Below, one piece after another: positions 2,611 to 4,891 of a stretch of DNA of 24,179 nt (positions within the stretch are counted from its first letter, which is position 1; the number at the start of each line of letters is the position of its first letter). The position numbers and the translations under genes are program-made. The notes under the pieces are model-generated. The model saw only the letters and a program-made list of their open reading frames with translations. It did no database searches and had not been told where the DNA came from. Source of the stretch: a virus; the UHGV virus genome UHGV-0071260. One strand, 5' to 3'.

Positions 2611-3150
2611 ATGAAAAATGATTACGGCGGCAGCCATACGCCGAAAGAAATAAAAGACTTATGGCAAACGCCAAAACCCGTTTTTAGAGGAATGGATCGA
2701 GAATTCGAGTTCGTCGCGGATGTGGCGGCAAACAAGGCAAACGCATTAATACCGCGATATATAACCGAAGAAATGGACACGCTCCATTATCCGTGGGGAG
2801 CGGTGGCGATGCCTGGTGAGTATGTCTGGATGAATCCGCCATATTCTAATCCGGGGCCATTCGTTGATAAAGCGGCGCTTGAACACAGCCGAAATCATAT
2901 CGGATGCGTAATGTTATTGCCCGCTGACATTTCTGTTAGCTGGTTTATGAACGGCGTGGAGACGGCAAACGAATGCCGATTAATCACGCGCGGGCGGCTG
3001 GCGTTTATCAATGCTGCAACAGGGAAACCAGTAAGCGGGAACAATAAGGGGAGCTTGTTCCTGATCTGGCATCCACGATGCAGACATGAATGTATTTTCA
3101 CGCAGATAACACGTAAAGAGCTATATGCAAGAGGTGCAGAAAATGAATAA
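2611..3150 (+). CDS. DNA N6-adenine methyltransferase, phage Dam family
   Basis: NPPY catalytic motif (WMNPPYSNP) and N-terminal WQTP motif typical of the phage Dam family; AAGGGGG RBS. Confidence 0.8.
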   Translation: MKNDYGGSHTPKEIKDLWQTPKPVFRGMDREFEFVADVAANKANALIPRYITEEMDTLHYPWGAVAMPGEYVWMNPPYSNPGPFVDKAALEHSRNHIGCVMLLPADISVSWFMNGVETANECRLITRGRLAFINAATGKPVSGNNKGSLFLIWHPRCRHECIFTQITRKELYARGAENE

Positions 3151-3463
3151 AGCGGCTGAATTGCTGAGACTTGCGGCTGAAACTATCGAGGCAAGAGGGG
3201 AGCAAAACGGATACGATCGAAAAGAAGAAAAATCAGCGCCAAAAATAGCGGCTATTTTCAACGCTAAGATGAATGCGAATTTAACCCCACTTGATGTATG
3301 GGATCTAATGATTTGCCTCAAGGAAGCGCGTTTAGGGGCTATTCTCGCTAATGGAACTGATCCGCTCGACACTCTTATAGACCTTATTGCTTATAACGCG
3401 CTTAAGGCCGAACAGATATTAGCGTATCGGGAGGAAGAGCTAAATGAAGATGGTGGCAATTGA
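3143..3463 (+). CDS. hypothetical protein
   Basis: ATG at 3143 with GAGGTG RBS, overlapping Dam stop; the track ATG at 3125 lies inside Dam. Confidence 0.5.
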   Translation: MNKAAELLRLAAETIEARGEQNGYDRKEEKSAPKIAAIFNAKMNANLTPLDVWDLMICLKEARLGAILANGTDPLDTLIDLIAYNALKAEQILAYREEELNEDGGN

Positions 3464-3947
3464 CAGGTTATTAGCCTGCGTTTATGTCGCCGTTTTCGTT
3501 ATCATCAATCTTATTGTTAACCACTGTGGCCCGTGGGTAATTCCGATCACCACGGTAGCCGCCGTGTGTGTCAATATGATGATTCGTGATTTTCTGTTAT
3601 ATGACGGCGGCCTTAAATGGTCGGCTACAACATGCGCCGCCGCTGGCGCAATCACGGTGCTGATAAATTACGACGCCGGAATGGTGGCGATCGCCTCATT
3701 CGTCGCGGTTGTTTCCGGTTCGCTTATTTCTGGCGGCGTTTACCGGGTTTTACCTGGTGATTTCGATTCGAAACGCTGGCCTGCAAATATAGCGTCAGCC
3801 ATAGGCGATGCGTTGATTTTCCCTACACTATCGTTTATGGCGTTTATGCCGGAAATATCAGCGATGCAATTCATCTCAAAAATGGCAGCGGTAACGGTGA
3901 TCACTATCATCATGCGCCGCTATTTCACGTTTGAGGGAAGAAAATGA
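3444..3947 (+). CDS. compact polytopic inner-membrane protein (about 5-6 TM helices)
   Basis: Six hydrophobic segments in 167 aa; GGGAGGAAG RBS; stop overlaps the downstream ATG (ATGA). Confidence 0.6.
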   Translation: MKMVAIDRLLACVYVAVFVIINLIVNHCGPWVIPITTVAAVCVNMMIRDFLLYDGGLKWSATTCAAAGAITVLINYDAGMVAIASFVAVVSGSLISGGVYRVLPGDFDSKRWPANIASAIGDALIFPTLSFMAFMPEISAMQFISKMAAVTVITIIMRRYFTFEGRK

Positions 3948-4732
3948 GCAAGGGCAAACATTGGTTAAATAATTGGCTTAGAAGTTGGGTGGTGTGGTCG
4001 CTGTACGACGGCAGCGGGTACGCCGTTAAAGATTGGGCGGAAGCGGGATATAAGTGCTATTGCTTCAATTATGACGGTGCAAATCACGGCGATTATGAAG
4101 GCGTTAAAATCATTCATCCTAATATTGAATACGTTAACGTGTGGATTGACAGCCATTTCCTGGTAATGTTCTCGCCTGAATTGTCTTCTTATCCAGCACC
4201 TGACATTATATTGGGCTTTCCGCCGTGCGACGATCTCGCCGTTTCAGGCGCTCGCTGGTTCGCTGGTAAACGGGAAAAAGATCCTGCCTTCCAGGTAAAG
4301 GCGGCGTATAACGCAAAACTGGTAGAAAAACTGGCGAATATGTATAACGTGCCGTGGATGGTGGAAAATCCGGTGGGCGCACTGTCAACGTTATGGCGCA
4401 AACCTGATTTTATCTTCAACCCGTGCGCTTACGGTGGCTACCTGCCGGAAGACGATAAACACCCTGCTTTCCCTGAATACATAGCGGCCCGCGACGCATA
4501 CACGAAGAAAACTTGTATCTGGTGCGGGAATGGATTTAAGCAGCCGCTATTCCGGCCTGTGCCAATGCCTGATGAATGGGAAGACAGTAAGCAGCACGCT
4601 AAGTTAGGAGGAAAGTCGAAACGCACTAAGATGATCCGCTCACTAACGCCGCGCGGCTTTGCCCGTGCTGTATTCCTGGCTAACGACCGGGCCATCAATC
4701 GCACTACGCTTAACCGCGTTTTACCGGACTGA
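3944..4732 (+). CDS. C5-cytosine DNA methyltransferase-like protein, divergent (PCD in place of PCQ)
   Basis: Motif I-like DGSGY, motif IV-like GFPPCDD, motif VI-like VENPVG in canonical order; short C-terminal region; GAGGGAAG RBS. Confidence 0.55.
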   Translation: MSKGKHWLNNWLRSWVVWSLYDGSGYAVKDWAEAGYKCYCFNYDGANHGDYEGVKIIHPNIEYVNVWIDSHFLVMFSPELSSYPAPDIILGFPPCDDLAVSGARWFAGKREKDPAFQVKAAYNAKLVEKLANMYNVPWMVENPVGALSTLWRKPDFIFNPCAYGGYLPEDDKHPAFPEYIAARDAYTKKTCIWCGNGFKQPLFRPVPMPDEWEDSKQHAKLGGKSKRTKMIRSLTPRGFARAVFLANDRAINRTTLNRVLPD

Positions 4733-4755
4733 AATTTACAAAATGGCGCCATTGC

Positions 4756-4769
4756 GTGATGTGGATCAC
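4756..4769. promoter_or_regulatory. palindromic motif GTGAT-N4-ATCAC (copy 2 of 3), flanked by AATGGCGCCATT-type palindromes
   Basis: cGTGATgtggATCACATAA; perfect 12-bp palindrome AATGGCGCCATT at 4742-4753 and near-copy AATGGCGCTATT at 4772-4783. Confidence 0.3.
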
Positions 4770-4891
4770 ATAATGGCGCTATTCACTTTGTTCTGGTGTA
4801 TCCATTTTGTATGCTTCAAGCAAACGAAATGCTCTTTAAAAATCCGGCAGCGCTGAAATGCGTAGAAATCACCTGAAAAGGAGAGAGCATT

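Follow-up and report, generated by a model that had tools for sequence, protein, structure and literature searches.

The window analysed here, a 24,179-nucleotide stretch of the viral genome UHGV-0071260, comes from a phage of the mEp021/mEpimmI group of temperate, Nus-dependent coliphages and carries four overlapping genes. They encode a Dam-type methyltransferase (g1), a DUF6378 protein (g2), a small membrane protein (g3) and a protein with a predicted cytosine-C5 methyltransferase fold (g4). Profile comparisons identified g3 as a compact, divergent six-helix homologue of the YhhQ/QPTR queuosine-precursor transporter. The block is probably best described as a co-transcribed accessory set and not as one pathway, i.e. 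as two orphan anti-restriction methylases and an independent transporter, perhaps feeding the queuosine of the host tRNA; we would put the chance that this description is right at about even. The initial annotation, which was made from the sequence, had suggested that the four genes form a single DNA-modification unit, with the transporter importing a precursor or cofactor for it. The block had so far been annotated with no more than the labels 'membrane protein' and 'hypothetical'. New here are the assignment of g3 to a family, the pairing of VUT and DpdA-like genes elsewhere and the existence of a DpdA-less branch which includes a common group of gut coliphages. YhhQ homologues encoded by phages and orphan methylases of phages are already known kinds of genes, and it is their context here that is unusual.

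Assignment of g3 to the VUT/YhhQ family

The direct match of g3 to the Pfam family Vut_1 (PF02592) covers the full length of the protein (profile positions 6-149 of 152) with E = 0.094, and PHROGs places the protein in phrog_4899, the function label of which is unknown. A word-index search with g3 found the mEp clade and a single 54%-identical protein, and the exhaustive search with a profile of g3 and the mEp-clade sequences yielded 260 relatives. PF02592 is matched at E <= 1e-3 by 56 of the 60 relatives which were aligned (best E = 2.5e-15). When the alignment of the g3 family was compared with E. coli YhhQ by hhalign, a probability of 93.4% was obtained (E = 2.4e-7, 141 columns); the narrow mEp-clade profile alone was too shallow to detect YhhQ and is uninformative in this respect. 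The core residues of the family N22, R48-D49, A82/S85, N115, D122, F131 and K146 are kept in g3. The Kyte-Doolittle scan of the 167-aa protein showed approximately six hydrophobic segments, and six transmembrane helices are given by TMHMM/Phobius for its counterpart in the mEp021 record, in agreement with the number of helices estimated initially. Membership in the VUT/YhhQ families, to which the initial annotation had pointed for comparison, was thus supported, and no unrelated, well-characterised family matched the protein. Of the characterised YhhQ-family proteins, that of E. coli takes up preQ0 and preQ1 and that of Chlamydia queuine (PMC11130926).

Relatives of the transporter and their neighbours

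Scanning IMG/VR yielded over 540 viral loci that contain compact VUT genes, and the best 80 of them (L005-L084) were analysed. The pattern used for the scan was drawn from the main VUT clade, and it is this clade which the following figure describes: the compact VUT gene is adjoined in 66 of 79 loci by a gene of one family encoding a DpdA-like protein of about 245 aa, which lies immediately upstream in 62 of them. This family is phrog_887, labelled 'queuine tRNA-ribosyltransferase'; it gave no Pfam match at E <= 0.01 and no sequence match in PDB. Its members share invariant DNGAF and GSSG motifs (e.g. L007:3621-4358 and L051:4168-4995). The same pair of genes was also found in Phleasolo of the Rogunavirinae (hhalign 100%; L086:3962-4792, recorded as 'hypothetical'), in the Pectobacterium phage PEAT2 and in an Acinetobacter phage. 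Phage YhhQ genes located within dpdA/que clusters have been described in CAjan and Vid5 (PMC7544227, PMC6266253). This ties the compact VUT family firmly to 7-deazaguanine DNA modification, and the pairing offers a means of annotating hundreds of phage loci in metagenomes. Dam, DUF6378 and C5-methyltransferase genes are essentially never neighbours of the distant VUT genes in the 80 loci.

Some of the VUT relatives (P0152, P0158, P0159, P0162, P0168 and others) are about 300 aa long and consist of an N-terminal transporter domain and a C-terminal extension of approximately 140 aa, which has no Pfam match and the composition of which looks beta-rich. No viral contig was found that would provide the genomic context of P0136.

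The nearest relatives of g3 outside the mEp phages (34-45% identity) are encoded on viral contigs of 117-141 kb. Within 6 kb of these genes, neither DpdA nor Que, Dam or C5-methylase genes were detected; one contig has an N4/N6 methylase gene two genes from the transporter, and no methylase neighbour is consistently present. A gene encoding a MazG/PRA-PH-like pyrophosphohydrolase occurs near two of these relatives; one (L091:6461-7198) overlaps the transporter gene and the other (L089:3360-4073) is 2 kb off. In a neighbour-joining tree, calculated without support values, the mEp clade and the sequences from the 117-141 kb contigs group together on one branch, separate from the majority that is linked to DpdA.

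The VUT/DpdA pairs elsewhere commonly share an ATGA-type junction, with DpdA following VUT, and in the window the slot after the VUT gene is filled by an unrelated gene, g4. It could be imagined on these grounds that g3 is the decaying remnant of an ancestral VUT-DpdA cassette in which the transglycosylase was replaced, and that it has no current function. This is scarcely credible, since the open reading frame is intact in all 46 related contigs, in all seven isolates and in the divergent contig L003, where the protein is 52% identical, and the dN/dS of g3 is 0.025-0.046 at dS 0.29-0.42. Purifying selection acts on each of the four genes, and g3 has the lowest dN/dS of them; a dead remnant is excluded because the selection is so strong.

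Absence of 7-deazaguanine genes

A hidden Markov model of the DpdA-like family, run with the option --max, gave no match in the window, in L001, in L003 or in the complete genome of the related phage MagusPhagus. Neither DpdA nor any gene of the queuosine pathway is annotated in MagusPhagus, no Que or 7-deazaguanine gene is annotated in the mEp021 region, and none was found by PHROG scans of the open reading frames flanking the block in the window. The initial statement that the window contains no 7-deazaguanine gene agrees with these results. Two hiding places of a DpdA were considered and rejected. The large unannotated proteins of MagusPhagus are DnaB, integrase, repressor and similar proteins, and a DpdA encoded elsewhere in the phage was ruled out for this complete genome from the annotation, the large proteins and the model search. 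The possibility that g4 is a disguised DpdA gave a probability of 0.2% in hhalign against the DpdA-like profile.

The methyltransferases g1 and g4

The g1 protein matches Pfam PF05869 with E = 1.9e-51 (174.5 bits, cut-off 28.1; profile positions 1-167 of 169) and the NCBIfam equivalog TIGR01712 with 140.9 bits (cut-off 97.05), and it was assigned to phrog_111 by PHROGs. Its translation contains the NPPY motif (MNPPYS), which has the (D/N)PPY form of phage Dam. Of 46 related contigs, 44 carry the gene intact, and its dN/dS against relatives is 0.05-0.09. Judged by these profiles, g1 encodes a phage Dam-type N6-methyladenine methyltransferase, as was originally proposed.

The evidence on g4 is of a different kind. 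No Pfam family was matched at E <= 1, PF00145 included; among the matches listed, 2 of 120 g4 homologues carry PF00145. A phmmer search of PDB with g4 gave no match, the g4 profile matched DNMT3B with a non-significant E of about 0.5, and hhalign against E. coli Dcm gave nothing significant. As these sequence searches gave no significant match, the fold assignment rests on the predicted structure. The model has the C5-methyltransferase fold with the catalytic Pro-Cys of motif IV and an ENV-type motif VI, and the motifs recognized in the protein are I (LYDGSG), IV (FPPCDD), VI (ENP) and the C-terminal RSLTPRGFA. The modelled structure thus shows g4 as a compact Dnmt3-like C5-cytosine methyltransferase fold with intact catalytic motifs, and the C5-methyltransferase-like call made earlier was sustained. 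With the catalytic domains of Dnmt3A/3B it shares 11-19% identity, and the likeness is one of fold and motifs, not of family membership.

Both g1 and g4 clearly belong to widespread phage families, namely the PF05869/TIGR01712 Dam proteins and the short C5-methylases of phrog_757, and the presence of such orphan phage methylases is an ordinary result. The g4 family comprises more than 7700 clusters and occurs also in phages without any VUT gene. The dN/dS of g4 against relatives is 0.07-0.16. Of the 44 mEp021-like contigs in which g4 could be assessed, 37 have it at full length, 6 carry a truncated or split copy and 1 lacks the gene. An HNH endonuclease gene stands in place of g4 in the prophages of STEC306-308 (L097:4011-4538 in STEC308), and the E21845/O/A prophages have an HNH gene inserted behind g3 (L098:3018-3545). 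The HNH genes around the g4 slot look like homing-endonuclease traffic in the region. A second HNH gene is located between NinG and RusA in some prophages.

The DUF6378 protein g2

The initial annotation had described the 106-aa protein between Dam and the transporter as unknown. Its length was borne out, and a 106-aa protein of the same length occurs in E. coli prophages (P0279), but the family is not wholly unknown: g2 matches Pfam PF19905 (DUF6378) with 37.3 bits (cut-off 27.1; profile positions 2-79 of 81). Nothing functional on DUF6378 was found in the literature. The domain was found in 226 records from a wide variety of phages, and in phage 9NA it forms the C-terminal part of a larger protein encoded near the portal gene. 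The AlphaFold2 model of g2, built on a shallow alignment, is poor (pLDDT 63.6) and has four helices; the protein is predicted to be all-helical. The Foldseek search of PDB with this model gave nothing below E = 2, and the sequence and profile searches of PDB gave no credible match. A relation of DUF6378 to MazG was rejected, as hhalign of g2 against the MazG-like neighbour in L091 resulted in a probability of 0.3%. The PHROG label 'phosphofructokinase' on g2 was not confirmed and looks like a propagated misannotation. Across the mEp021-like contigs the DUF6378 gene occurs in a short (n = 11), a mid (n = 8) and a long (n = 25) form. The short form encodes about 106-116 aa and the long form about 165-176 aa (e.g. 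L001:6744-7241 and L002:5992-6504), with a tail ending in the conserved motif NRLDL..FDRSE..DKRYDPN..KGDN. The g2 gene of the window is of the short form, i.e. it lacks the C-terminal tail of about 60 aa carried by most relatives. Its dN/dS against relatives is 0.11-0.13.

Gene order, junctions and transcription

The approximately 2.5 kb around the block share 87-90% nucleotide identity with MagusPhagus, mEp021, mEp010, mEp013, mEp044, mEp515 and mEp554, phages of the group that was named 'non-lambdoid, Nus-dependent' (PMC11893012). Phages of the mEp021 type are reportedly as frequent as lambdoid phages in human gut E. coli (PMC11893012). The order Dam, DUF6378, membrane protein, C5-methyltransferase is kept in the seven isolated phages, in 35 of 5426 complete E. 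coli genomes and in 46 mEp021-like IMG/VR contigs, and L003 retains it at just 51-66% amino-acid identity.

The stop of g1 and the start of g2 overlap by 8 nucleotides (ATGAATAA), and GAGGTG precedes the g2 ATG at 3143. The overlap between g2 and g3 is 20 nucleotides, with GGGAGGAAG ahead of the g3 ATG at 3444, and g3 and g4 share the 4-nucleotide ATGA at 3944-3947; each of the three starts is thus preceded by a purine-rich, Shine-Dalgarno-like stretch. The overlaps noted in the initial annotation are therefore real, but its use of translational coupling as a sign of one unit does not hold to the same degree. Since overlaps are common in an mEp021-type genome (9 of 32 adjacent gene pairs overlap at start/stop in the mEp021 annotation), overlap alone is weak evidence for functional coupling, and the junctions point to co-transcription more than to shared function.

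Promoter prediction found no strong promoter inside the four-gene block, and the sole terminator annotated in this stretch of the mEp021 record follows the C5-methyltransferase gene. In mEp021, nutR2 lies downstream of that gene, and the terminator t4 was predicted in the same region (PMC11893012). The intergenic region of the window at 4733-4891 appears from its sequence to match this location of nutR2 and t4; it contains a boxA-like TGCTCTTTA at 4830-4838. Two near-identical copies of AATGGCGC(C/T)ATT were also seen after g4, at about 4742-4753 and 4771-4782. Rfam and tRNA scans of the window were empty, and the empty Rfam scan means that no preQ1 riboswitch was detected in it.

The four genes could alternatively constitute an integrated hypermodification module, in which an imported base or cofactor precursor would be installed in DNA by g4 and/or g2 without DpdA; in a variant of this idea, the C5-methyltransferase-like g4 would use a cofactor other than S-adenosylmethionine. 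The translationally coupled genes, the order of which is kept even in L003, and the otherwise close tie of the g3 family to DNA 7-deazaguanine modification would suit such a module. We nevertheless consider it very improbable, and the observations which oppose it also contradict the single pathway of the initial annotation. The VUT relatives pair with DpdA-like genes, which g4 does not resemble, and almost never adjoin genes of the three kinds that accompany g3 in the window. Loss or splitting of g4, or an HNH gene in its stead, was seen in 7 of 44 contigs and several prophages, whereas g3 is intact; the g4 family is huge and is found in phages lacking a VUT gene, and the relatives of g3 on the 117-141 kb contigs have no consistent methylase neighbour. 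Finally, every known modification of DNA with 7-deazaguanines employs a transglycosylase of the DpdA type (PMC10516641), and none is present here. That mEp021-type and 120-140 kb enterobacterial phages possess a DpdA-independent DNA modification with a VUT-supplied compound and g4 or DUF6378 as the enzyme is highly improbable; if it were true, such use of an imported precursor would be a new route of DNA hypermodification.

The four genes were found at the positions at which the initial annotation had placed them (Table 1). The block is followed at its 3' side by a NinF-like open reading frame and then by NinG, RusA and Q, and 'nin-like region', as its surroundings had been called, is a fair label.

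Table 1 Features of the four-gene block in the window
Feature	Position	Strand	Description
g1	2611-3150	+	Phage Dam-family N6-adenine methyltransferase (assigned by profile), 179 aa
g2	3143-3463	+	DUF6378 protein, 106 aa; the alternative start at 3125 gives 112 aa
g3	3444-3947	+	Compact VUT_1/COG1738/YhhQ-family member (assigned by profile), 167 aa, about six transmembrane helices
g4	3944-4732	+	Compact protein with predicted cytosine-C5 methyltransferase fold, 262 aa
Intergenic region closing the block	4733-4891	+	Read from sequence

The open reading frame directly 5' of Dam (2368-2601) is the counterpart of mEp021 gp29, which is annotated 'ipe, inducer of pleiotropic effects' (phrog_303). It is preceded by an open reading frame at 2124-2366, which encodes a strongly hydrophobic protein of 80 aa (phrog_14059). 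Further early proteins encoded 5' of the block, of 206 aa (714-1334, phrog_1515) and 110 aa (369-701, phrog_34371), are kept in mEp021, MagusPhagus and the STEC308 prophage.

Possible role of the block

We propose that the block is a conserved accessory part of the N-antiterminated early-right operon in temperate coliphages of the mEp021 group; its early co-transcription under N antitermination is suggested by the layout and by the mEp021 data. Orphan phage methylases are generally assumed to blunt host restriction, and g1 and g4, judging from their families and motifs, would methylate phage DNA in lytic growth with this effect. The g3 protein would, by homology, import a 7-deazaguanine-type base (preQ0, preQ1 or queuine) through the inner membrane. 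As the phage has neither a DpdA transglycosylase nor Que genes, g3 probably acts apart from the methylases, and it may raise the precursor pool available to the host Tgt and consequently the queuosine of host tRNA during infection. An effect on host tRNA is suggested because, where the phage has no transglycosylase, the host Tgt is the only known consumer of the precursor. We regard this part of the proposal as tentative, with roughly one chance in three of being correct. It is in line with the earlier proposal that DpdA-less phages with queuosine-pathway genes boost host queuosine (PMC6884629). The description of mEpimmI (PMC11893012) contains nothing functional on the four-gene block. If the proposal is true, a temperate gut coliphage may tune the supply of queuosine precursors in its host without having 7-deazaguanine in its own DNA.

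Several points weigh against the proposed functions. The direct score of g3 is below the PF02592 gathering score (13.5 vs 27.2 bits). E. coli makes preQ1 itself and has its own YhhQ, so that the gain from an extra importer is unclear. The target-recognition region of g4 is very short, without a detectable target-recognition domain, and, as far as we know, no specificity has been published for any protein of the g4 family. In the BASEL study such methylases showed no simple relation to resistance against restriction (PMC8594841), and in CAjan the loss of the phage yhhQ by deletion left the DNA modification unaffected in rich medium (PMC7544227). Moreover, the g3 subclade, which comprises the mEp phages, L003 and the 117-141 kb phages, was never seen beside queuosine or 7-deazaguanine genes, which suggests that the substrate of g3 may have changed.

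This last point leads to the possibility that g3 is a VUT-fold protein which no longer carries queuosine precursors and instead moves a different small molecule or serves as a membrane effector, e.g. in taking over the host or in superinfection exclusion. The subclade is divergent, falls below the Pfam threshold and has DA instead of DS and AA instead of GG at near-invariant positions of the family, and it forms its own branch, the members of which never adjoin DpdA or Que genes. On the other hand, most of the residues conserved in the family and the six-helix layout were kept, g3 has no similarity to known exclusion proteins, and PHROGs gives just phrog_4899. Queuosine precursors are also, to our knowledge, the only known substrates of the VUT/YhhQ family. 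In favour of a changed function, specificity is known to shift in the family, as the different substrates of E. coli YhhQ and Chlamydia YhhQ show (PMC11130926). We judge a changed function of g3 to be rather unlikely, and prefer the import of a queuosine precursor by a transporter independent of the two methylases.

Comparison with known systems

The two methylases have their closest parallels in phages with orphan Dam or phrog_757 C5-methylases, such as Dhillonvirus, Jersey-like, Drexlerviridae and rV5-like phages, which carry the same two families. The Dhillonvirus 'welsh' resembles the window in having Dam, C5-methylase and DUF6378 genes in one early region. In this and the other orphan-methylase phages, however, the genes do not form a contiguous run, nor does a transporter gene lie between them.

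E. coli YhhQ is similar to g3 in profile, in its six hydrophobic helices and in the N, RD, ASF, D and K positions, but with 221 aa it is considerably longer than the phage protein of 167 aa. The YhhQ proteins of CAjan and Vid5 are encoded in dpdA/que clusters, whereas g3 lies outside such a cluster, is flanked by methyltransferase genes and belongs to a phage without a transglycosylase. The compact VUT and phrog_887 pairs, such as those of Phleasolo/Opt-719 and PEAT2, differ from the window lineage in the DpdA-like neighbour, which this lineage does not have. Their transporters are 30-37% identical to g3, and they are likewise found among early genes, close to NinB, RusA and replication genes.

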